A stretch of DNA of 53,702 nt from Chlamydiia bacterium. Lineage in GTDB: Bacteria; Chlamydiota; Chlamydiia; Chlamydiales; JAYUZV01. The notes under the pieces were generated by a model. The model made no database searches, was not told the origin of the DNA, and saw nothing but the letters and a program-made list of their open reading frames with translations. The stretch is taken from contig JAYUZV010000011.1 in the NCBI GenBank assembly GCA_043751475.1, positions 1 to 53,702 on the forward strand, given 5' to 3'. Of this stretch, positions 2,305 to 41,030 are shown one piece after another. The translations under genes were made by a program, and so were the position numbers. Position 1 is the stretch's first letter. Each line of letters starts with the position of its first letter.

Positions 2305-3798
2305 ATGTTCTGTCATGTGCAATCGGCAGCTTTTGTCGGAATTGAGGCGCTTGCTGTCCATGTCGAGGCCGACGTGCGGCGGTCAGAAAAGTTACAGCTG
2401 ATTATTATTGGCCTACCGGACAGTGCCGTGCGCGAATCGAAGGACCGTGTCCTCTCTGCTCTGCAAAATAGCGGCATGGGCCTCTCAAATGTACAAGCGA
2501 CAATTAACTTAGCTCCCGGAGATCTGCGGAAAGAGGGGTCACTCTATGACTTGCCTATCGCGCTAGCACTCCTTGTCGCTAATGGAAAATTGAAGAGCAT
2601 CGACGACTACCTCTGCATCGGTGAACTTTCTCTATCAGGCCACCTCCGTCCCTTGCGCGGAGGTCTTGCTGTGGCTCTGCTTGCCAAACGCCTCGGCAAA
2701 AAAGGGGTTATTATGCCAAAAGAAGCAGCCGCAGCTGCCGCAATTGTTCCGGGCATTGCACTTTTTGGGGTAAGCTCTCTAACAGAAGCTGTCCATTTCC
2801 TGAACGGCCAGAGGCAAATTTCGCCGGAAAAAGAGATCTCCGTCTTAGAAAAGGAAGGGAAACCCGAGGTCAATTTTGCCGATGTAAAGGGACAGGCGCA
2901 TGTGAAGCGCGCCCTTGAAATTGCGGCAGCTGGAGGCCATAATGTTCTGCTTTATGGGCCACCTGGCTCTGGCAAAAGTCTACTTGCCAAGGCGCTGTGC
3001 GGAATACTTCCCGAAATGACCCTCGAGGAGGCCCTTGAAATTAGCCAGATCCACTCCTTTTCAAAAGGTGAGTCAGGTGGCGGCAACATTGTTAATCAGC
3101 GCCCATTTAGATCGCCCCACCACAGCACCTCCTTTGTCGGTTTAATCGGCGGTGGGAGCCACCCAAAGCCTGGAGAGATCACCCTGGCACATAGAGGTGT
3201 CTTATTCCTGGACGAGCTCCCCGAATTTTCGCGCGTCACGCTTGAGTCGCTCCGCCAGCCTCTGGAGGATGGACGCGTCTCAATTGTGCGCGCTGCGGGC
3301 AAGCTATCCTTTCCGTGCCGCGCCCTCCTAATTGCAGCCATGAACCCCTGCCCTTGTGGATATCTTGGCCATCCGACAAAAGCGTGTAGCGACACGGCGT
3401 TGCAAACAGCGCGCTACCGCAGCAAAATTTCGGGCCCCATGCTGGACAGATTTGACATGCATATCGAGGTGCCAGCACAAAAGATGGAAAAGTTGCTAGC
3501 AGATGAGCAGTCAGAGTGTAGCAGCACTATAAGGCAGCGTGTATCAAAGGCACGCAAGGTGCAGCTAGCCCGTAGCGGCAAGAGCAATAGCGAATTGCAG
3601 CCAGCGGCGCTGAAAGAGGTGTGCGCCATCACGCGATCTAGCAAAGAGCTACTAGAGCAAGCAAGCGCACAGATGAACCTCTCGGCGCGCGCCATTCACC
3701 GCATAATCAAGGTGGGTAGAACCATTGCCGACCTTGAGGGTAGCAAGGATATCACGGATGAGCACCTGATGGAGGCCCTCACCTACCGCCAGCTCTAA
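2305..3798 (+). CDS. comM: YifB/ComM-family Mg-chelatase-like AAA+ ATPase
   Basis: N-terminal Lon-protease-like region (SAAFVGIEA...DLPIALALL), Walker A GPPGSGKS, Walker B VLFLDELPEF, C-terminal ChlI-like region; 497 aa is the typical length. Confidence 0.9.
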   Translation: MFCHVQSAAFVGIEALAVHVEADVRRSEKLQLIIIGLPDSAVRESKDRVLSALQNSGMGLSNVQATINLAPGDLRKEGSLYDLPIALALLVANGKLKSIDDYLCIGELSLSGHLRPLRGGLAVALLAKRLGKKGVIMPKEAAAAAAIVPGIALFGVSSLTEAVHFLNGQRQISPEKEISVLEKEGKPEVNFADVKGQAHVKRALEIAAAGGHNVLLYGPPGSGKSLLAKALCGILPEMTLEEALEISQIHSFSKGESGGGNIVNQRPFRSPHHSTSFVGLIGGGSHPKPGEITLAHRGVLFLDELPEFSRVTLESLRQPLEDGRVSIVRAAGKLSFPCRALLIAAMNPCPCGYLGHPTKACSDTALQTARYRSKISGPMLDRFDMHIEVPAQKMEKLLADEQSECSSTIRQRVSKARKVQLARSGKSNSELQPAALKEVCAITRSSKELLEQASAQMNLSARAIHRIIKVGRTIADLEGSKDITDEHLMEALTYRQL

Positions 3799-3805
3799 AA
3801 AAAAA

Positions 3806-4105
3806 AGAGCAAGAAAGAAAATTGGCACGGATAACAGGATATTCAGGATAAGAAAGAAAGGATAAGGGGTAAGGGGGAGGATAAATGAAAAAACACGGTT
3901 TTTTCATTTGTTCCTCGGATTTCGCAGTCGAAATCCCGCTCCTCCGGAGAGGCGAATCTCTCTGCAGCTTACTCAGACTTAGAAATAAATAGTGGTTTAC
4001 TACTTAATTAATTATTTTTTTCTTATCCTCTTACTTATCCTGAATATCCTGTTATCCGTGCCAATTTTTCTTTCTTGCTTATCTTTCTTATCCTGCTACC
4101 CATCA
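3806..4105 (+). repeat. Palindromic intergenic element R1 (variant-A arms plus conserved core in + orientation)
   Basis: Left arm gcaagaaagaaaattggcacggataacaggatattcaggataag (3809..3852). Its reverse complement lies at 4034..4078, identical except for one extra T. The core lies at 3873..3967. The element sits between the convergent stop codons of comM (3798) and pssA (4116). Confidence 0.9.
3873..3967 (+). other. Conserved core module of the repeat family (copy 1 of 5): GGAGG, then ATG, hairpin A, hairpin B, GCTCCTCCGGA, then CTCTCTGCAG
   Basis: Hairpin A at 3883..3909 (aaatgaaaaaa / ttttttcattt). Hairpin B at 3917..3936 (ggatttcg cagt cgaaatcc). The same module is found at 15684..15780(-), 17559..17659(+), 38855..38951(+) and 40837..40935(-). 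Confidence 0.85.
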
Positions 4106-9550: not shown

Positions 9551-9620
9551 AAGCAAGATAAGCAAGGAAGAGGGTTTGCTTATCTTGCTTATCTTCGTCC
9601 AGATCCTATTATCCGTGCTT
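9551..9620 (+). repeat. Degenerate or solo member of the repeat family (R9), probably acting as the nrdB terminator hairpin
   Basis: Perfect 15-bp stem aagcaagataagcaa (9551..9565) / ttgcttatcttgctt (9576..9590), followed by atcctattatccgtgc. That sequence resembles the variant-A arm (atcctgttatccgtgc). Confidence 0.6.
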
Positions 9621-11808: not shown

Positions 11809-12558
11809 CTAGAATTTTTCTGGGCGGGAGCCAAGATCTTTCCAGTAATCACTTCCATAGTCATAGAGGAGCTGACTGCCGGCTGGGATGTCGCGAGAGG
11901 CGACAAAAAAGATGTGGCCGAGCCCTTTCCAGAAGAAATATTCGCTATCGATGTTATTCTTTTTAGAGCGCGTACTGGCGTGGTTCATAAACTGGGCATA
12001 GCCCCCTTTGCGCTGCGGATCGATGACCCACGCATTCATCTTTGTCCCATCAAAGCCGAAGAGATAGCCGTTGTCTTCCGCTTCATCATGCAAACAGATC
12101 TCGCCTGGATAGTTGGTGATGACGGATCCCTTCGGGATATCCTCTTTAGTAAAAAGACCATAGCCCACAGCATCACTCACCTTGCGAATCTCCACACGAG
12201 AGGCGTAGACATCGCTTGCATCTTCCTGAACTGTGTCGATCAGCTCAATAAAAGCGCGCTGAAGTTTAGAGGGTCTTTTGGGCACCATTTTTTCCGCAAA
12301 CTTAGCAAAATGTTCGCTAAAGGCGATGCGATATTTTGCCTTTACTGTCACCTTGGAGGTGTATTTAATCTTTGTCTCAAAATTTAGGCGATTTTTAAAG
12401 GTTGCAGAGAGTTCATTGTTTTCAGATTTTATCTCTTTTGCTAGTTCCGCAAGAATGCGAGAACCATTTCCATCTTCTATCTCGAGTTTCTTCTTTCCAA
12501 AAGGGAAGCGGTAGTCGGAAAAAAGCCCCTTGATTGCACTAAAAATCGTCTTTCCCAT
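11809..12558 (-). CDS. SET-domain protein (putative protein lysine methyltransferase, similar to the chlamydial SET/NUE type)
   Basis: GYGLFTKEDIPKGSVITNYPGEI, FMNHAS (NH motif) and SRDIPAGSQLLYDYG (ELxxDY-like) form a SET fold signature in the C-terminal half. Confidence 0.85.
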   Translation of the reverse strand: MGKTIFSAIKGLFSDYRFPFGKKKLEIEDGNGSRILAELAKEIKSENNELSATFKNRLNFETKIKYTSKVTVKAKYRIAFSEHFAKFAEKMVPKRPSKLQRAFIELIDTVQEDASDVYASRVEIRKVSDAVGYGLFTKEDIPKGSVITNYPGEICLHDEAEDNGYLFGFDGTKMNAWVIDPQRKGGYAQFMNHASTRSKKNNIDSEYFFWKGLGHIFFVASRDIPAGSQLLYDYGSDYWKDLGSRPEKF

Positions 12559-15546: not shown

Positions 15547-15915
15547 AGCACCGATCAGCACGCTAGCAAGCAAGAGAGCAAGAAAGAAAAATTGGCAGGA
15601 TACAGGATGGGCAGGATAAGGCGAGGATAAAGAAAAGGGATAAGTAAGAAGGCAAGGTTTTAATTAATAAAGGGTTAAAGCAGCTACAGAGAGGAGCGCC
15701 CCTCCGGAGGAGCGGGATTTTGCACTTAGCAAAATCCGAGGAACAAATGAAAAAAACGTGTTTTTTCATTTATCCTCCCCCTTATCCCTTATCTTTTCTT
15801 ATCCTTTCTTATCCTGTTATCCGTGCGGATTCTCTTTCTTTCTTACCCCTTTCCCTTATCCTCGGCTGATCCTGCCCATCCTCTATCCGTGCAAACCCTC
15901 TTTCTTGCTTCCCCA
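15547..15915 (-). repeat. Palindromic intergenic element R2 (variant-B outer arms, variant-A-like inner right arm, core in - orientation)
   Basis: Left arm gcaagaaagaaaaattggcaggatacaggatgggcaggataaggcgaggataaag (15578..15632) pairs imperfectly with 15854..15908. The core is at 15684..15780 on the minus strand. Hairpin B is at 15715..15737 (ggattttgc / gcaaaatcc). Confidence 0.85.
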
Positions 15916-16003: not shown

Positions 16004-17464
16004 ATGAAATTATTAAGGCCGATTGCCCTAGCCCTCTCACTCTCTCTTTGCGCGCTTCACGCAGAAAATAGCGCAGATGTTGCCGCACTTAAATCACTCT
16101 CAAATGGCTTTAGAGAAGTCGCAAAAAAGGCAACGCCAGCTGTTGTCTTTTTAGAGGTCCAAGTCGCGGGTGCTAGTGAGGAGATGGGCAGTGCAGGGGC
16201 AACCCCTTTTGAAGATGACGCCCTTGAAAACTTCTTTGGCCACTCATTTAAGCGAGGCAAGCCAAGCTACCAGACTCAATCTCAAGGTTCTGGGTTTTTT
16301 GTCTCGAGCGATGGTTACATTTTGACAAACAACCACGTTGTGGCTAATGCCTCTAAAATTATTGTCCGCACAACACTTAACCGCGACTATGTCGCAAGCG
16401 TTATTGGAACAGATAAATCTAGCGATATGGCACTACTAAAAATTGAGGGTAAAAATTTCCCCTATCTCGAATTTGCAAAGCCGGATACGTTAGAGGTTGG
16501 TGAGTGGGCCATTGCTATTGGCAGCCCCTTCGCCCTTTCAAACACATTCACAGTAGGTGTTGTGAGCGCAAAAGGACGCAGCACCTTGCGCATTGCCGAC
16601 TACGAAGATTTTGTCCAGACAGATGCGGCAATTAACCCCGGCAATTCGGGCGGTCCTTTAATTAATCTCGATGGAAAAATCATTGGAATTAACACGGCAA
16701 TTGCTTCAAAATCTGGCGGCTACAACGGAATTGGCTTTGCAATCCCCGTTAATTTAGCAACATTTGTGATGAATCAACTGAAAACAAATGGCAAGGTCTC
16801 TCGCGGCTTTTTAGGTGTTGGACTACGCGAAATCGATGCTGAAATGGCGTCTAAATTTAAGCTGCAAATGGTTGAGGGAGCCCTTATTTCTGAGGTAGAA
16901 ACAGGCTCCCCTGCCGCTACTGCTGGATTAAAACTCGGCGATATTATCCTCGAATTTAACGATAAGCCGGTGACAGATTACGGAAAATTGCGCAATGAGA
17001 TCTCGATGACCCCTCCTGGACAGAGTGTCGCAATAAAGGTACTACGTGCAGATGGCGCTACTATCACATTAAACCCGATTCTTGGCTCTGCCGCAGGACA
17101 CGCCAGCAGCGCAGCGGGTATGGTTAAAAAATTAGGTTTTACTGTTAAAGATATTTCTAAAGCCTTTAGAAGCAAAATAGAAGCGCAAATCGGTGAGAGC
17201 GCCGGAAGTTTGCAGGGCTGCTATGTCTCCTCGCTTCTTGTCGGGACTCATGCCCAGCACAGAGGTGTCCATGTCGGTATGGTCATTGATGAGGTCAATC
17301 GCACGCCGGTTACAAATGCCGCCGAATTCAATAAAGCCGTTGCCGCCTACCTAGAAGATGTCAAACTCTCGGCTGGCAAGAAAAAACCGGCTCTACTCTT
17401 GCGCGCTGTTTCGATTAAGTCCGGCAAAGCACTCTCCTCCTACATCACCATCCCCACTCCGTAG
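16004..17464 (+). CDS. htrA: HtrA/DegP periplasmic serine protease with two PDZ domains
   Basis: Signal peptide MKLLRPIALALSLSLCALHA. Catalytic triad contexts NNHVV, DMALLKI and GNSGGPL. A C-terminal PDZ-like region is present. The ORF track starts at TTG 15998; ATG 16004 is preferred. Confidence 0.9.
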   Translation: MKLLRPIALALSLSLCALHAENSADVAALKSLSNGFREVAKKATPAVVFLEVQVAGASEEMGSAGATPFEDDALENFFGHSFKRGKPSYQTQSQGSGFFVSSDGYILTNNHVVANASKIIVRTTLNRDYVASVIGTDKSSDMALLKIEGKNFPYLEFAKPDTLEVGEWAIAIGSPFALSNTFTVGVVSAKGRSTLRIADYEDFVQTDAAINPGNSGGPLINLDGKIIGINTAIASKSGGYNGIGFAIPVNLATFVMNQLKTNGKVSRGFLGVGLREIDAEMASKFKLQMVEGALISEVETGSPAATAGLKLGDIILEFNDKPVTDYGKLRNEISMTPPGQSVAIKVLRADGATITLNPILGSAAGHASSAAGMVKKLGFTVKDISKAFRSKIEAQIGESAGSLQGCYVSSLLVGTHAQHRGVHVGMVIDEVNRTPVTNAAEFNKAVAAYLEDVKLSAGKKKPALLLRAVSIKSGKALSSYITIPTP

Positions 17465-17812
17465 CACGGATCAGTAAGATAGCAAGCAGGATCAGTAAGA
17501 TAAAGTAAGAAAACCCGCAGGGATAACAGGATATTCAGGATAAGAAAGATAAGGATAAGGGGGAGGATAAATGAAAAAAACATTGTTTTTTCATTTGCTC
17601 CTCGGATCGCGCATCAAGGGCGCGATCCCGCTCCTCCGGAATGGCACACCTCTCTGCAGTTGCATTAACCCTTTCTCTCTTAAAATCTTACATTCTTTCT
17701 TGTTCTTGTAATTTTTTTTCTTATCCTCTTACTTATCCTGAATATCCTGTCATCCGCGCAAATTCTCTTTCTTACTTTCTTGCTTACTTTATCTTGCTGA
17801 TCCTTGCTCTAT
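17465..17812 (+). repeat. Palindromic intergenic element R3 (variant-A arms, core in + orientation)
   Basis: Left arm ggataacaggatattcaggataag (17521..17544) and right arm cttatcctgaatatcctgtcatcc (17733..17756). The core is at 17559..17659. Hairpin B is at 17604..17628 (ggatcgcgc / gcgcgatcc). Outer tracts rich in gtaag/cttac also pair. Confidence 0.85.
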
Positions 17813-18935: not shown

Positions 18936-21900
18936 ATGACAAACACTGTATTACATAGAAATCCTCATATTACCCAGGTCGGGTTTGAGACCTCGGAAGA
19001 GCTTGCCTTATGGGGAGCTCCTAAAGTAGAGATTATCAATGAGGGGAACAAAGAGAATACAAGCGAATTAAGCTGCGCTTTCGAGAGAAAAAACCCCGCA
19101 GCAAAAGCAATTGCAGGCAGCGCGACCCCAGAGAGCAAGAGTGTTACTACAGTTCAGAGCGACCAGGTACGGGCCCATATCTTACACCACCCGAGCCTCG
19201 CAAAGCTCAGACCGTCCAACAGATCGACCTCCCTAGAGTCGCCTACAATCCGCTTTTTTATTCGGCTCTGGAACTATTTTGCAGACTTTCTGAGTCTGAT
19301 TTTCTTGCCTGTGCGCGCCCAGCTACATGGCTCTGCGATAGTATATGCCGCGGCATTTGGCAGCAGTCGCAATAAAAAAGCACCCCCAATTGACCACCGT
19401 CTTTTTAACTACGTCTGTCTAAATAAGTCGCGCAGCAGAAATTTAGCCGATATCTGCGACCGCAACTTCGACCACCTCCCCGAGTCAGCCCTCCTCTACT
19501 ACATGCGCGATTTTTGCAGGGAGCAGGCCGACATTCCAAGGAGTTTTGTAGATGAGTTGTCAGACTCAGCAAAATGGTCGGCTAAGCTTGAAGAAGCCGC
19601 TGCACTTAGAAGCCAATCTTTACGCTTCTTGAGCTCAAAACATGCCGAGTGCGATGAGATCATCGAAGAAGTTGCCACCGAAATGGAAGCAAAAATTGCA
19701 GCACTTAAACCAAATGAGTCAATCACCGTTCCTTGCCAATTAGCAACCCCTCCGGCTATGCCGAGCCTCGGGGTGCTACTTCCTGGCAGACTCATGGATG
19801 CTGCCCAGGGGTGGTTTGATGGGAACGAGAGCTACCTAGCAGGTATGGCTAATTATATCCCCTCTGCCAAGACAAATTTCCTGATACGCGTCCAAATGGT
19901 CGGTGAGGACAGTTACACCATCACCCTTACCTCGCGCGATGGACTTGTTCATGAAACCGAGAAGGTCTCTCTCATTCCCGCGGGGAAAACAAAGCTGGTT
20001 GCAAGCCTACCATTTAAAGCAGTTTCATTAAAAAAGAGAGAATTTGGTGACAAGGCGTGGTTGCGTGGCCTATGCCTTCTTCGCACGCCCCACGTAGCGC
20101 AAAGCACGGATAGACATGATGGCTCAGTTATAGAAAGCTCTCCTGTAGCGCGTACGGGGAATGAGCTGGCGGAGCTATTTGAACCCTTTATCCACAAGCA
20201 AGGGCCCCCAGATAACCCGAAGCATACAACTGCTGTTTTTACTGCCAATGCCATTAACAACTTAATGCCCCTCATGAAAGAGGATAGTGCGATCCATCCA
20301 AGTGATGAGAAGGTGGCTGCACGCAGAAAACTTACACTTAAAGTAAAGACCCTTTTCGGTTTTTTTGGCAGCGTGGCAAATACCCTCATGCTAGACCCAA
20401 AAAGTGCCGAAATGGAGCGCACCTACTTAGAGGAGGGTCTCCTTTTAATTCAGCAAGATGCCGCTATTCTCGCCTCACAGGGGTGGCTTGACAAACAAGA
20501 GGTGCTAGATCTTAACCACGAATTTAGGCGCATTGAAAAGGCGCTTGAAAGAGCATCTGGAAAAGCACAGACTGTTACCCCTCCTGGCCGGGTAAAAGAC
20601 TCCCCTCCAAACGCAGTCCTTACCCAACCAAACCCACCCTCACCCGCAATAGATATCGATACAAAATCGACAAAGGTCGCCTATCCCACAAAGAAAACCC
20701 CCACACCATGCGAAATCGGTTCGGAAATAAGGCCTCGTATTGCCGGCTACACCTTTGCTGAGAAAATCGACGGATCAAACATCGCAGATCAGATCGATTA
20801 CGCCATTCAAATCTTGGATAGACTTACCGCTGCAACTGAAGCAAAAGATCTTCTAACCGTTCAGCAGCTCGCCATCGATTTTGCCTTTCTCCTGCCCATA
20901 CCAAGCATCTATGAGTTAACGGGTTATAAATTAGAAGAAACAACTATGCCTTGGAGATGCCTTGGTAAACCGCGGGGTGATTTAGCAGATCCGATGGCGG
21001 ATGCGAGCCGTAAACTCTCCCGTCTTGCCAGCGCACTTGCAAAGGCTGCAAGCAGTGAAAAGACCCTCTCACCCGACCGTCTCATCGCAATGGGACGTCT
21101 TGGTTTAATGATTCGCTACCTCGGCTTCATGAATGCCGAGCGCTCTAACCTGACTGGCCATACTGCAATGGGAGATACGACAATTGACACGGTTCTACAG
21201 CTCTTGCAGCCGCTGCACGGCGAGCGCAGCTTCTACATTCCAAGATCTGCAAAAGAGAAGGCAGCTCTTGACCAGTTGAAAGCTAGTAATGCCGATCTAA
21301 AAGCTCACTTTTCCACCTTGCTCGAGGGCGATTACTTATTCGGCCATATCAAACGCCGCGCTGTCCGTGGCGGCAGCGATATTGAATTGACAAAACTGGC
21401 GCTCTCTCACCTTAAAAAGCAGATCAAAGACGATTCAAATAACCCTCTACACCCTGTTCTAGACAACCTCGCCAGTCCAAACCCGGGGGATATACAAAGC
21501 GACACGATTACAGATGCTCAGATTACTACAACAGCGCGTCTTATCAGCTCCAATTTGATGAAGGAGCTCACAAGAGCCCAAGATCAGGAGCCGTTCAGAA
21601 CTCAGGAGCAGATTAAACTTATCGGCCTGCGCGACTACGCTTATAGCCGCATGCGGATCAAAAGAAAAGATGGAACATTTGGTAATGACAATACACAAAG
21701 TCTGCGCAAACGATTCAGAAAGATTAACGGCAATATTGTCGATGACAATCTAAATCCTGTTACCTACAACAAAAAGCTTTATATTGTTATCTCAGAGCAA
21801 ATCTCGAATGAGAAGTCGCAAACAACCTCTGAAACAGGCTGGTTCTTCTTTGACTACATTGGCCGTGAGCTCTCAGCGGATCAAGGAATGCTTGTAAATG

Positions 21901-24900
21901 CTCAGGCAGGGGTGGGCAAAGTTCTTCTGAACGGCAACCCATTGCTCTCGACAGCTACAGACGCTGCACTGATCTCCCATTTGGAAGGCGGAGGTGTTCT
22001 TCAGGTGGGTGTGCAAGCGGTCGATGCTGTCAAAAAAATGGCTGGCACAGAAAATCCGGAAGGATCCCTTAACCAGCAGACTGCCGATGAAAACCAGTTG
22101 ACCCACTGGATAAACTTCTTTCACGACTTTCAAGAGTTAATACCCGACTCCTTCCCCTTTGCTAGTGGATTCGATCTCTCCTCTGAGCTAAAGCGCGAGA
22201 AGCAGATGAAGTGGCTTGCCAGATGGAGGCGCTCCCCTAAAAATGAGCTCTTCACGGCCCTTTATTTCCGTGGAGAGGTTTCTAGAACAGGCAAACCTGA
22301 AACGCTCTACAGGGAAGGCAGCTATCAAAGAGCCAGACGCATGGGGCAGAGCTACATGCAAAATGGCACCGTCACGGTAAAGGAGCAGCCAAAATATCTA
22401 GGTACCGGAATTACAGAACAGGGACTTAAGGATGACCCGCGCTATGTTATTAACCGCTTTTTCCACGTCTGGAGGATCATCAATGGAGAGGATTCGGAAG
22501 GGATCGCCCAAGATGCCAAAACTAAAGCACTGACATTGCCAGACGGCCTCAGAATCGAGCAGTGCGAGCCGCTATTAAAGGCGCTCCACAACCCAACCGC
22601 TATCTGGGAGACAATGGCACTTGTGAGAGGCAGCGATCTGCTGAAATATCCAGAGGTGCGCACACTTCTTCTCGGCCTATTTACAGAGCCAAAAACTTTT
22701 GAAAGCACCGTTATGAAGGGTGGAGAGCGCTTCATTAACGACTTAGTAGAATGGCTAAGCGAAAACTATAAACAGCAGAAAAAATTGGGGATAGAAAACT
22801 CATTTGAACTGCTCTTCTTTGTCTCGATTGCGCAGACTCTACGGCTGATGATTGCCGAAGATGCCATCACATTGACACCTGAATTAAAAAAGGCTGCTTT
22901 AGAGCGCCTACCTGATTTTGAGAAGGAACTAAGGGCTCTTAGTGAAGAGTCTTTTGGCAAACCCGAATATGACAACTACCGCAGACAAATTATTACACAC
23001 CACCTCTTTGCCCTCACTGAAAAAGAGAAGTTAAAGCCAGAGCAGCTCCATGAAATTATCGTCAGACGCTGTCTTTTAAACTGGATGAAGCAGCCCCCTC
23101 TATCTGAGGTCGATCCAATGATAGAAGATAGAATTAACCACAACATCCTGAGGTGGAAGGGAACTCTTGCGGCGTTTTATGAGGTTGATGATTCCACTCG
23201 CATCCAACATACAATGGACGAGATTTTCCATAGAAAAACACCAGAGAAGATCCCCGACTTGACTTGGACGCTAAAATTCCCTATGGCTTCTAACGACCAC
23301 TTCGAAATTAATCTTTTAACAGGCGACACTCGACTTAAAAGCTCGGGTCAACAGCTCACTTCTATATCGGCAAAGGGAGAGAATAAGTATAAAGAGGCTT
23401 TTCCAAAACTTGCAGCTCTAACCGGCGGAAGCGTACAGGGGACAATTTATGCTCACCCTAGAAGCGTCATCTTCGAATTTACCGAAGAGTCCTCGGGCAC
23501 AAACATCCGTATTGAAGAGAGGGATGATGGAAATGTCTATATTTACAGATCTGTCGAGGGAAGATGGTATCAGTGGCAAAAAACAGACGACCTTATCGCT
23601 AAAGGCAGCACCCCTCACCCACTCATGGCTCAACTAGGAAGGATAGCCCCTCCTGGATTACCTATCGGAGCCCTAAGCAGAGCGCGCCCGCAGCTGCCTC
23701 CGGCGATTTTCGGCGATTTTCAGTGTTTCGACTCGGAAAACCCCACCATGATGGCCACCTTTGATGAGAACGGCAAGCCCCTATTTAAAGTGGAGTTTAC
23801 CTACGACAGCCGTGATGCGACTGGCGATTACATGAAAGTAAAGCGAGTCCACGACCTGCGCCAAAAGAGAAGAAAAGGCTGGACAGCCCAGTTCTTTAAC
23901 GACCCCAAAGAACTGCCTATTTTACAAAGACTGAGCGGGTTTGAAGACTCCAGCACCACGATGCTCTGGACAAAAAATGGGGTGCTTCAAGAGATTGAAT
24001 TGATACGTTTTGGCCTCTCTTTTGTCAAAGATGAAAAGGGCGATTTTCTATCGAGTAACCACCGCGGATACCGCCTAGAATTGAACCCCTCATCGCACGA
24101 GAATAAAGGGGTAGAACAAGCAATTGTCTTAGTGGGAATAAGCCCGCCTCACAAGAAAAAAATCCTCATGCCACAAATCGGCAACGAGGCCTACGGCAGA
24201 AAAGCTGTGGCTCTTTTCGGCGTGACAGATCCAAATGCTCAGGCGCTGCTTTCCATGCTGCCTGTTGTTTCAGATATCATGGCAAATCCGAGCGCGCTTT
24301 TTACATCGCGCCTTCCAACGCCTCTTAAACGGCTGCTCAGATATATGATGACAGGAGAGAACCCCTCTTTCCTAGACCTAGCTCCAAGAAGTGGTGGCAA
24401 TATTTGGATTCACGATAAAGCAGGACTAACACGCGGCTATTGGGAGTATGACCTCGGCGCTGATGGGAATCTGCAGTGTCAAGATGAAGCAAAACATGAG
24501 GCGCTGCTTGACCAGCTCGCCTATACAACGCAAAACAGTGGCCACGGCCGCAGGGAAGCGCTTATCCAAATTGAGCCACTGCTAACCGAACTAAATAACC
24601 TCTCTAACTCTCTTTTTGAGAGATATTCAGATCAAGAGGTCAGCAATGTTATCCGCAGATTATGCGGAATTGGCAAATCAGAATCGCTGCTAGGTCTTTC
24701 CGACAGCCTAAAACTACTGACTAGACTGATCCTTCATATGAGTGCCAATGAGACAGGTGTGCTTCTGCGCGTATTGCTGACACTGCGCAAAAAAATCTCA
24801 ACAAGCAGCAAACGCCTTTTAGGGACAACAGGTCAGCCTATTCTGGACGAATTTATTACCCTTATTTACAACGGCTACCTCTCGCATGGCAAACACATGC

Positions 24901-27900
24901 ATAAGGTCGCAAGAATCTCGCCAAAAGAGCTCGAACTTCTAGGCCCTGCAACCCTTTCGGCACAGACGCTAGGCCTTACCCTTCCCGGGCGCAAAGGCAA
25001 GGTCGCTGTTACCCATCAACCTTTTGGGCCGAAAGAGTACACAATTACAGCTCTTGCGCCCACTATCGCCCAAAATAGAGCCAATAGAGCGCATTCTATT
25101 GAAGAGTCATGGATACCGACAGAAAACGTCTATAACCGGGGAAAAAAAGAGGTAAAATCACGCACATTCAGTGCAACGCGTATTAATTTAAAAGAATTTC
25201 ACCGCGACTTTACCGAGATCTATAAAAGAATCAATGAGAACGACCCCTTAAGCAGCGACTTTAGGGATCTAAAAATACTTTTTGCAACAACGCCGGGTGA
25301 TCCACACAACAAGGATGGCAACAATCTGGTTAATTATCTCCGGGTTGTGATGGAAATGCGCGAAGCTAAAGCTGTACGCGCTTTAGGAGAGCAAGGGAAT
25401 GATGTAGAGGCGCTGCCACCGCTACCGCTACTGGCTACCTTAAAATCTTCGGACGATGTTGACTCTGAATTATTTGTCGAAAGTTCTGAAACCGTTCTAA
25501 CGGAAAACAGAGAACGTATTCACCATTTTCTCGAACAGCTCGATCAAATCGTCCTCAACTACCACCTGAAAAGAAAGCCCCTTGAGCACCTAGCAGAAGG
25601 GGCTGAAGGGTATGACCCGAATGAGATGGCCCTAGCCCTTGCCAGAGTCCGGCAGCTCGAGAGAGCGCTAGGAGCGCACCACCCAACCACCGAGCAAGAG
25701 TTAGAGGAGTTTGTGCAGATCTTCTCCGACCTCTCGACTACCACAACAGATGCTGGACTCACTATTATTGATGTGGGCGTCTCTCCTTTCTTAAATAATA
25801 CCCAAGGTCAAGATGAGATTGACTCCTATTTCCAAGAGGTTATACCCCAAGATTTAACAGCAAAACTCAGCCAGTTAACCACAAGACTTGAAGCGATAAG
25901 AAATAACGACAAAAAAGAGCGCTGCGTCCGCAGTAAGATGGAAAAAATTCAGCGGGAGATTACCGTTGCAACAGGGCAGGCCGCAAAAAACAGGCTCCAT
26001 AAAATTGACCAGAAAAAGCTCTACTCACTGACCCACCTAGTAATGGAAAAAACGGATGGGTATAGAGCTGAGGTTGCAAGACTTAAAAAAGAGATTCTCG
26101 GTATTCTGCACTCCAACGGAGACCCCACCCAAGCGCTGATACAGGCGGCTGGTTATGGCAACCACATTCAGTGGGAAGAGCTACTTGCTGCTTTTGCACG
26201 CGATGATTTAAAAGCACTTGAGTCACGCCTTCCTCCCCACACCACTCTAAAAACAATTAAAGACCTGGTGATTAACTACTATGCCTCAAGCGTTGAGGCG
26301 AGTAATGGCGCGAAGATCCTGGACGAGCTTGCCCGGATGCAAAAAGATAAGCTATCCGACTGTCCCCTAACGGGTGAGAACATCTATAAACTCTGTACAG
26401 CACGGCGCTACTTTGATGTTAAGGCCGAGCCCTCACTGCTAGCTATTGAAGGAAAGATGGGCTTTAAATTGCGCAAGCAGCAGCTCGAGATCCTGAATAA
26501 AGGAAATAATTGCCTGATTCAAGCGGCAACAGGTGCTGGTAAAACAACCCTAACTCCAGTAATTGCCCAGCGAAAAGCAACCGGCAAAAACTTTGTTGTG
26601 ATGGCCTATCTCAGCCCGCTGCTAGAAGAGGCCAATACCCACCTTAATGCAATTCTCGGGGACTTTTTAAAACGCGATGTCTCCAAAATTATCCACACTG
26701 GAAAGGATAAGGTGCGCTTTACCGCAATTGATGCAAACCAGCCTGATAAGGGCGAGGTTGAGCAATCGATGTTTAAACTTCACTACAAGCGCATGCTCGA
26801 TATTATGGCAGGAAAAGGAGCTGTTGCAACCGATAGAAAATCCTTTCCTCTGCTTGCACAGCGTCTTATTAAACTTCTTAACGAGTGCTCAATAGCTGTG
26901 CTCGAGAACCACGTAACTCTCGATCAGTTCCAGTACGAGCACCTCTACTACCTTTCAAAAATCTTATTACTCCTATCAAAACGCAGTACAACAACCATCG
27001 ACGAGCATGACGCCTTTCTCGACCCAACTCAGGTCCTCCACCTCCGCTCTGGCAAGGTCGTTTCTGCCCCTACGTTTATGTGCGAGTCTACGCTAGAGCT
27101 TTTCGATATGGCACGTGATGAGATAGAATTGCGTATTGATGAGAACGTTCAGGGTGATATACCAGAAGAGGTGCGCCTCGCCCTTTTGCGCACCGTCGCT
27201 GAAAAGAGCTCTCCACTCTTTTTAGACAGATTAGCCGGCTCTGCAAATAACCCCACCTTGACACCCCAAGTACTCGCTAATTTTAATATTCCAATTTTCA
27301 TCTCAACAGATGAGATCACCACCTATCTGCGCGGTGATGAGGGCTGGAAAGATGTCGAAACCAAGCTGCACGCTAAACAGGCAGAGATCGAGGCTAAAGC
27401 AAATGTTGAAAGAGAGGGTGAACAGGCGGGTTCTGCACAAGATGTTGAGGCACATTTCCTCGATTGGCTCGACCGTCTGGCCTTTGCTAAAGACCAAATT
27501 ACCCTCTATCTTCCCCTTGTTTTTGGCCACACAAAAAATGTAAAGTTTGCGCGCTCGGAAGATGGAATCCATACCATTCCCACAATATCGACAGACAGAC
27601 CGCGCGAGGGAGCGCAATTTGACAATATCTGTGAAAAGATGCCCTTTACAGCTACCGACTGGTGGCAGAGCGGCGTAACCGCTGAATATATGCAAGCATG
27701 GGCTAATGATCTGCACGAAAAAGCCAAGCGAGAGGCCGCTGAAATGGCTGAATGCGGTGATGAGGCTAGTGACCTAGAGACAACGCCATCTGGCAGTGCC
27801 TTTAAGAAAAAATTCCCGCAACTATCGCTTTATACCTACACCGGCGAACTTCTAGCCAAACTGGTTAATGGTGATATTAATACCTACGTCCAGATGATGC

Positions 27901-38775: not shown

Positions 38776-38789
38776 CACCGATTACACCA

Positions 38790-39050
38790 CAAGAAAAGAA
38801 AGGAAAATTGGCACGGATAACAGGATAAGAAAGGATAAGGAAAGAAAGAGAAAAGGGGAGGATAAATGAAAAAACACGGTTTTTTCATTTGTTCCTCGGG
38901 TTTTGCAAAGAGCAAAACCCCGCTCCTCCGGAGTGGCAACCCTCTCTGCAGTAGCTCTAGCTTTAGAGGTTTTACTATTTAATTATTTTTTTCTTACTTA
39001 TCCTTTCTTATCCTGTTATCCGTGCCAACCCTCTTTCTTTTTTTATCCTT
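38790..39050 (+). repeat. Palindromic intergenic element R5 (short variant-A arms, core in + orientation)
   Basis: Left arm aaattggcacggataacaggataagaaaggataagg (38805..38840). Right arm cttacttatcctttcttatcctgttatccgtgccaaccc (38993..39030). The core is at 38855..38951. Hairpin B is at 38898..38920 (gggttttgc / gcaaaaccc). Confidence 0.85.
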
Positions 39051-39137
39051 TTCAAATCCTGCGATCCTTGCAGAGCTTGAGAATTATCAGGGCTGTCGGC
39101 TATTCTTAAGGCTTATATCTAATTGGAGAAAAGCTCT

Positions 39138-40706: not shown

Positions 40707-41030
40707 CAAGATCAGCAAGGATAAAGCAGCAAGAAAGCAAGAAAGAAAAATTGGCACGGATAACAGGATAAGAAAGGATAAAGAAAGAAAAAATTAATTA
40801 AATTAAAAAGCCTATTTACTTATAAAGCTAGACCTACTGCAGAGAGGGTTGCCGCTCCGGAGGAGCTGGATTTCGCTTCTTAGCGAAATCCGAGGAACAA
40901 ATGAAAAAACGTTGTTTTTTTCATTTATCCTACCCTTATCTCCTTTCTTTCTTATCCTCGCCTTATCCTGTCCATCCTGTATCCTGCTAACTCTCTTCCT
41001 TTTTCTTTCTTTTCTTATCCTTGCTGACAT
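40707..41030 (-). repeat. Palindromic intergenic element R6 (variant-A left arm, variant-B right arm, core in - orientation)
   Basis: The core is at 40837..40935 on the minus strand. Hairpin B is at 40868..40891 (ggatttcgc / gcgaaatcc). The terminal inverted pair atcagcaaggataa (40711..40724) / ttatccttgctga (41017..41029) overlaps the last codons and stop of ORF 41015..41332. Confidence 0.85.

Follow-up and report, generated by a model that had tools for sequence, protein, structure and literature searches.

Small non-coding repeats with long hairpins are known from several bacterial lineages. The Correia repeat-enclosed elements (NEMIS) of Neisseria are small non-coding intergenic repeats with inverted-repeat ends, often found beside coding regions; they are co-transcribed, and their long hairpins affect the processing, termination and stability of mRNA. 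Overviews of small bacterial repeats cover these and similar sequences, among them miniature inverted-repeat transposable elements (MITE), repetitive extragenic palindromes (REP) with the bacterial interspersed mosaic elements (BIME), and RPE (PMC3733652; see also PMC3184786). Folding and modularity are recurrent features: base-pair compensatory changes keep the cruciform-like RNA structure of bcr1 in the Bacillus cereus group, compensatory changes are also found in Borrelia stem-loops, SPRITE resembles a Rho-independent terminator, and BOX is modular (PMC3184786). The QMITE elements of Coxiella burnetii give small RNAs (sRNAs) and supply parts of promoters or terminators (PMC5896051). The present analysis concerns a repeat family in a stretch of 53,702 nucleotides (hereafter the window; contig JAYUZV010000011.1 of assembly GCA_043751475.1) from a Chlamydiia bacterium, an uncultured, deep-branching member of Chlamydiota. 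Five intergenic palindromes of this window each enclose a copy of a core of roughly 95 nt that contains two hairpins, one of which keeps its pairing while its sequence changes. With moderate confidence, the core is read here as the internal non-palindromic module of one subfamily of mosaic, MITE- or BIME-like, non-coding palindromic intergenic repeats.

The five core copies, referred to as c1 to c5, lie at 3873-3967 (+), 15684-15780 (-), 17559-17659 (+), 38855-38951 (+) and 40837-40935 (-), and measure about 95 to 101 nt. Direct reading of all five sites bore out the positions and strands proposed in a preceding sequence-only reading of this DNA. A covariance model constructed from c1 to c5 retrieves these same copies at 107-121 bits (109.6, 116.7, 109.2, 120.6 and 106.9 bits, respectively) and no further one in the window, in the 10 kb upstream of it or in the loci of two relatives. 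Within the window, the 15-mer GGATAAATGAAAAAA has nine matches with at most two mismatches, against 0.37 expected, and GCTCCTCCGGA has six with at most one mismatch, against 0.93 expected. Since these counts exceed expectation and the model recovers five copies, the core is repeated far beyond chance. Its 5' part consists of GGG(G/T)AGGATAA, hairpin A (AAATGAAAAAA(A), a loop of 5-6 nt and TTTTTTCATTT), G(T/C)TCCTC and hairpin B, and its 3' part of C(C/A)GCTCCTCCGGA, a variable 9-nt patch NNGGCNNNN, CTCTCTG(C/T)AG and an A+T-rich spacer with a T-run. In c1, hairpin A occupies 3877-3916 and hairpin B 3917-3936; next come CCGCTCCTCCGGA, the variable patch GAGGCGAAT and CTCTCTGCAG. The block order listed for the module before is kept in all five copies, with small variants in c2 (CTCTCTGTAG), in c3 (GCTCCTC) and in c5 (CAGCTCCTCCGGA and GGGTAGG), and the A-run of hairpin A extends to seven As in c3 and c5.

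The two hairpins are the parts of the core on which RNAalifold and the single-sequence folds agree; they disagree on a closing stem and on a third hairpin. Hairpin A has 16 pairs, 15 of them invariant, and only its outermost pair is unformed, in c5. The stems of hairpin B read ggatttcg/cgaaatcc, ggattttgc/gcaaaatcc, ggatcgcgc/gcgcgatcc, gggttttgc/gcaaaaccc and ggatttcgc/gcgaaatcc in c1 to c5, around the loops cagt, taagt, atcaagg, aaaga and taagaa, and all of these sequences agree with those first listed. The loops had been called unrelated, a description that does not hold for four of the five, which share AAG (T-AAG-T, T-AAG-AA, A-AAG-A and ATC-AAG-G). Among the nine pairs of hairpin B, four show two-sided changes, with no one-sided change and no G·U pair, and the 45 stem-B cells are all Watson-Crick or, in c1, absent. 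Both strands of the stem thus always change together, as had been claimed, and since every change is compensated the hairpin must be either under constraint or actively re-symmetrised. The accompanying idea of a constraint on the fold stands to that extent; evidence that the constraint acts on RNA was not found. The observed covariation was reached by none of 500 shuffles, controls with a slid register gave 0-1 two-sided changed pairs, and a simple permutation argument gives p ~0.001-0.004, for a compensation that rests on three to four independent events in five copies of one strain.

Variation along the core is unevenly distributed. It affects seven of the seven columns of loop B, three of five in loop A, nine of 18 in stem B and six of nine in the variable patch; among the other core columns, six of 62 vary and 56 are invariant. 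The spacer directly downstream of the core is strongly diverged between copies. The conserved core blocks are thus under constraint or subject to homogenisation, and stem B changes in sequence without loss of pairing. Selection on folding, template switching or the two together likely maintain the symmetry of hairpin B. Because stem B has no G·U intermediates, both DNA strands fold equally well, and five copies cannot settle whether the hairpin acts as RNA or as DNA; an origin of the symmetry at the DNA level had also been named in the preceding sequence-only reading.

Each core lies inside an intergenic palindrome of 250-350 bp with a purine-rich left arm and a pyrimidine-rich right arm, and in all five core-bearing elements the arms span 32-74 nt and are 72-98% complementary. 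The arms are built of short purine-rich modules (AGGATAAG, AAGAAAG and GGCACGGATAACAGGATA) and together make up a stem of between 40 and about 100 bp, whose G+C-rich base, GGCACGG/CCGTGCC, lies between an A-tract and TTTTTCTTTCTT. Two arm types can be distinguished, type I reading AATTGGCACGGATAACAGGATA and type II reading TTAGCAGGATACAGGATGGRCAGGATAAGRCGAGGATAAG. Type I arms flank the core on both sides in c1, c3 and c4. The c1 element (3798-4101, +) has arms at 3818-3857 and 4029-4068, 40 nt long and 98% complementary, around a spacer centred on TTAATTAA, and the predicted DNA fold of the whole element has a free energy of about -82 kcal/mol for each of the two strands (z between about -15 and -16). 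The c3 element (17463-17808, +) has nested arms, and that of c4 (38789-39051, +) has arms of 54 nt with 83% complementarity. The other two elements are mosaics: the composite c2 element (15577-15909, -) is a type II palindrome, its outer arms 74 nt long and 81% complementary, that encloses a left arm of type I, and the chimeric c5 element (40739-41025, -) combines a type II left arm with a type I right arm. Arm similarity tapers outward gradually, with no sharp end. The relationships among copies are also mosaic, with incongruent shared characters such as the seven-A run of c3 and c5 and a T-A pair of stem B in c2 and c4, and with spacer groupings of c4 with c5, c2 with c3, and c1 with c5. These incongruent characters imply exchange between copies or recurrent change.

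The arms also occur without the core. The arm motif AGGATAAGAAAG has 26 matches in the window, against 0.44 expected, including sites that lack the core, and the 54 kb hold at least three arm-only elements in addition to the five core-bearing ones. The element at 30775-30935 (+) combines type I arms with an apex of the TTAATTAA type and lacks the core; it is the 'empty' counterpart that defines the boundaries of the cargo. Another, at 45805-45960, is a near-perfect long palindrome, and a third, at 49650-49935, is nested, its outer arms being of type II and its inner arms (49697-49854) type I-like; a partial arm-only element was found at about 9551-9620. Alignment of filled with arm-only elements gives a clean insertion of about 110 columns, which identifies the core (about 110 nt with the first spacer bases) as a discrete insert; it is situated in the left arm, near the apex centred on TTAATTAA. 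The alignment supports the proposal that the core is a non-palindromic cargo within palindromic arms. On a smaller scale, hairpin B is itself a nested palindrome, the 5' half of hairpin A can also pair with the innermost right arm, and the sequence of hairpin A resembles the apex of the arm-only elements.

All elements of the window are intergenic, and they usually start 0-35 nt past a stop codon. The element of c1 begins at the stop codon of a comM-like gene and that of c3 at the htrA stop codon, the c4 element lies between the priA stop codon and lysS, and three elements, including those of c1 and c5, lie between convergent genes. The promoter-like sites of htrA and lysS are downstream of the elements. 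The core occurs in both orientations relative to transcription, as noted before, and c2 is antisense to both of its neighbours, a gene for an M16/PreP-like peptidase and htrA, each encoded on the + strand. On direct reading, type I arms terminate with CCGTGCCAA, and TTTTTCTTTCTT comes next on both strands, a geometry expected of a bidirectional terminator. The genes of the window are housekeeping and chlamydia-like, encoding a SET-domain protein, a class I ribonucleotide reductase, the M16/PreP-like peptidase, HtrA, PriA, LysS, CysS and a product of 3,943 aa from a single open reading frame (ORF).

The window matches a metagenome scaffold in ENA almost end to end, and the retrievable contigs of the organism belong to one strain, 99.99-100% identical to the window. 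Independent short-read assemblies of this strain end inside the elements (window positions 3837, 4041, 15799, 17556 and 49673), which implies that the genome contains more copies outside the window; the 9.9 kb upstream of the window hold no element, and no paralogues were found within the window. The nearest relatives by HtrA share 65% and 55% identity, and the next, at about 50%, include named Chlamydiota metagenome-assembled genomes. Neither the core nor the repeat family was found in the loci of the relatives at 65% and 55%, where synteny is kept. These have unrelated palindromes in the same htrA-eamA spacer (L040, 1651-1778, with arms of 38 nt and 74% complementarity; L041, 3206-3278, with perfect arms of 12 nt followed by a T-run on direct reading), and the palindrome at the 3' end of htrA seems to be particular to each lineage. 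A search of 185,579 reference genomes gave no match to the pattern GCTCCTCCGGANNGGCNNNNCTCTCTG and, for TTTTTTCATTTGNTCCTCGG, 30 single matches in unrelated taxa that are best read as chance. One of the latter, in Parachlamydiaceae, was considered as a further copy and rejected, as direct reading showed a different sequence and not an element. In the JGI metagenome contigs the core pattern had no match and an arm 20-mer had one chance match inside a coding region, viral contigs gave two stray pattern matches only, and plasmids and phages had no core match. Judging from these searches, the repeat family is species-restricted, previously undescribed and absent from the public collections searched.

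In the explanation favoured here, the repeats would be co-transcribed 3'-end hairpins or terminators that have spread as non-autonomous repeats, and the core would be a subfamily-specific module near the stem apex. The geometry of the arms suggests a bidirectional intrinsic terminator or a 3'-end hairpin that may stabilise transcripts. Hairpin B could be kept by selection on folding, either in a read-through transcript or in single-stranded DNA, and alternatively or in addition template switching may copy a change from one of its arms into the other. The near-invariant unpaired blocks suggest a sequence-specific partner, which may be a protein or an RNA.

Several observations weigh against this explanation. 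The conservation of the unpaired CCGCTCCTCCGGA and CTCTCTGCAG is not accounted for by a mere apex or terminator role, and the predicted RNA fold of the top strand of the core is stabler than that of the bottom strand in all five copies, by 0.8-7.7 kcal/mol. No consistent direct repeat indicative of a target-site duplication was found in the flanks of the five elements, which were both read and aligned and whose ends cannot be fixed within the low-complexity A/G-rich modules. Likewise, no insertion polymorphism was seen among the retrievable contigs, all of the one strain, and no transposase was found among the window genes (Pfam lists) or in the 10 kb upstream. The palindrome at 45805-45960 lies between divergent genes and not at a 3' end. 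Finally, a simple terminator scan flags none of the elements, a scan that accepts loops of 3-8 nt only and to which the stems of these elements, with their long 'loop', are unscorable.

Comparison with described families places the elements among known kinds of repeats. They match the definition of a MITE in part, having terminal inverted repeats, a size of 250-350 bp (under about 500 bp), no conserved reading frame and multiple copies. With the Correia elements they share the character of a small non-coding intergenic repeat with inverted-repeat ends and a long hairpin. However, the sharp 26-bp inverted repeat of Correia elements contrasts with arms of 40 to about 100 nt made of short purine-rich modules, a TA duplication is not evident here, and the elements of the window carry a non-palindromic core of about 95 nt with nested hairpins; going by their descriptions, the sequences look unrelated. 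The BIME or RIP elements of enterobacteria are similar in several respects (PMC3733652, PMC2817692): they are mosaics of palindromic units in alternating combinations, inverted units being separated by an internal motif that is not palindromic, and they lie after stop codons, between convergent or same-direction genes, in either orientation. REP units, by contrast, are G+C-rich sequences of 20-40 bp with a GTAG or CGTC tag and a link to RAYT transposases (PMC3733652), and neither the tag nor a RAYT was seen here. The elements do not fit the definition of a REP, their arms being long and A/G-rich and GTAG being present only in c2 (CTCTCTGTAG), with GCAG in the other copies; a gene for a Y1 (IS200/IS605-like) transposase was not found among the window genes or in the 10 kb upstream.

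Further likenesses are found outside the enterobacteria. The bcr1, ERIC and pneumococcal BOX, RUP and SPRITE elements are repeats of 100-170 bp that are transcribed or predicted to act as RNA (PMC3184786); they belong to other hosts and are set apart here by description. In addition, bcr1 has 5-bp direct repeats and strain-variable locations, neither of which is shown for the present family, known from one strain. QMITE1 and QMITE2 of Coxiella burnetii and the RPE of Rickettsia are high-copy palindromic or MITE families of intracellular bacteria; RPEs and QMITEs are often located inside ORFs, whereas the elements described here are intergenic throughout the window and known from sequence alone. 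Because compensatory, modular and terminator-like repeats have already been described (PMC3184786), as have REP/BIME, RPE and MITE families (PMC3733652) and MITE-derived sRNAs (PMC5896051), the elements are best regarded as a new family of a known kind.

The core could alternatively be a structured RNA in itself, either an sRNA or a cis-acting element of a 3' untranslated region or leader, spread by the palindromic elements and composed of hairpins A and B, a single-stranded CUCCUCC that resembles an anti-Shine-Dalgarno sequence, and GGAGGA; this reading, which the preceding sequence-only account had preferred, is considered unlikely. Such an RNA would agree with the restriction of variation to the loops, mid-stem B and one patch, with the compensation of all stem-B changes, and with core RNA folds at z-scores of -3.9 to -7.3, and MITE-derived sRNAs are documented in Coxiella (PMC5896051). 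The greater stability of the top strand in five of five copies, together with G·U pairs that are possible on the top strand only, at the base of hairpin A and in a third, weak hairpin (GGAGnGG/CCnCTCT; direct reading), leans slightly toward a strand-specific RNA. That third hairpin, however, varies on one side only, its position 5 being A, G, T, T and C in the five copies opposite an invariant T (direct reading), and stem B has no G·U pair in 45 cells. Mismatches of the arms, counted on the core strand, comprise 24 G·T and 17 A·C and show no strand bias, which also speaks against an RNA. A sigma-70-like promoter or intrinsic terminator consensus was not found in or beside the core, and c2, as an antisense copy, would need a promoter of its own. 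The Rfam scan that had been proposed as a check found no match to the core in Rfam 15, either at the gathering threshold or at E<=5; at the latter cutoff the scan gave only sub-threshold matches of miRNA-precursor type on two arm-only palindromes (45805-45960 and 49650-49935) and one weak snR86 match across the whole c4 element. The failure to find the core in the syntenic relatives or in the searched collections counts against this alternative as well. With nothing specific to RNA among the evidence, the reading of the core as a structured RNA is neither shown nor excluded. A role of the variable patch as a guide segment was considered and rejected, since its 8-9-mer matches are scattered across copies and the sole 9-mer match in a copy's own flank falls within coding sequence and could be due to chance.

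Distinctly unlikely, in our assessment, is that the hairpins are signals at the DNA level. In this case a transposase or recombinase from another locus of the genome would recognise a cruciform or a fold of single-stranded DNA and move the core into the apex of existing palindromes, comparable to the REP hairpins and RAYT or to the ends of IS200/IS605, with the unpaired blocks as binding or cleavage sites. Perfect Watson-Crick stems would work alike on both strands, the core behaves as a discrete insert whose position is fixed in arms of either type, and a precedent exists in REP and RAYT (PMC3733652). The unpaired blocks also contain short perfect palindromes, namely CTGCAG and CTCCGGAG, the latter present in four of the five copies where 0.6 occurrences would be expected across the window; the restriction-site-like palindromes CTGCAG and TCCGGA were considered and set aside, their frequency being not unusual in the window. 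Against a DNA signal, no HUH/Y1 or other transposase was found in the 54 kb of the window and the 10 kb preceding it, a consistent GTAG or CGTC tag is lacking, and the left boundary of the core is ambiguous, as AGGATAA is also an arm motif. A related and equally doubtful possibility is that the core is a tiny mobile structured module that inserts specifically beside the palindrome apex and is recognised as a folded nucleic acid by a putative enzyme, with the invariant unpaired blocks CCGCTCCTCCGGA, CTCTCTGCAG and GGGGAGGA as sites of recognition or catalysis, or that, once transcribed, it is an anti-Shine-Dalgarno-like regulatory RNA. Insertion of the core by the apex of pre-existing elements would explain its occurrence in two different arm types.

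A more improbable alternative is that hairpin B is a functionless quasi-palindrome whose symmetry is restored by intramolecular template switching, so that its paired changes are mutational and not selected. Multi-base compensatory changes can arise in a single template-switch event during replication (PMC8794818), and c3 shows the pattern expected from one such switch, two adjacent positions being changed on both sides (TT/AA to CG/CG). The absence of G·U or mismatch intermediates from stem B is in line with the multi-base compensation described for hairpins maintained in this way (PMC8794818), and loops of 4-7 nt favour intrastrand switching. However, the long arms tolerate many mismatches and gaps (72-98% complementarity), which implies that symmetry is not restored everywhere, and the unpaired blocks are almost invariant next to a diverged downstream spacer, which points to purifying selection or frequent conversion and not to drift. 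Template switching is, moreover, a mutational mechanism and not a family of elements, and it fails to explain the conserved unpaired blocks. That the core encodes a small protein from GGAGGATAA-ATG (MKKHGFF...) is very improbable, despite a strong Shine-Dalgarno-like GGAGGA 4 nt before the ATG in all copies and open frames of 35-68 codons in c1 to c4, as an extra A shifts the frame in c3 and c5, c5 stops after 14 codons, the compensated changes of hairpin B alter the peptide freely, the same arrangement arises from the palindrome on the other strand as well (GGAGGATAAATG and GAGGAACAAATG, with ATG-AAAAAA on both strands) and opens a conserved frame on neither, and gene callers call no gene in these spacers; a small ORF or type I toxin at this site was ruled out by the unconserved frame and peptide.

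Returning to the interpretation of the core as a module of palindromic intergenic repeats, its confirmation genome-wide would make this the first high-density family of palindromic repeats described from this deep lineage of Chlamydiota, and a clear natural case of an 'arms plus cargo' repeat in which hairpin pairing is kept by compensated changes. The family is new, while systems of this kind are already known, and it does not constitute a new class. The full set of copies would make it possible to test cleanly between selection at the RNA level and template switching at the DNA level as the source of the apparent covariation. The practical value of the elements is modest: they break metagenome assemblies and probably mark the 3' ends of transcripts.

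Some additional features of the window and its upstream region were recorded. The 3,943-aa ORF occupies 18936-30767 (+) and has no recorded Pfam match, and a relative (L040) has an ORF of 3,826 aa likewise located after htrA-eamA. The SET-domain gene at 11809-12558 (-) is of the eukaryotic PRDM2_PR/SET type, which fits a chlamydia-like affiliation. ARAGORN predicts a transfer-messenger RNA (tmRNA) gene with the tag peptide AKKATIMQFPSRKANIAAEVAA some 8 kb upstream of the start of the window (L043, 1932-2377), and its start is overlapped by a 58-aa ORF from the gene caller. Also upstream of the window, two adjacent genes of 76 and 40 aa (L001, 3601-3831 and 3857-3979) both match DUF2992 and may represent one gene split by a frameshift or a stop codon.

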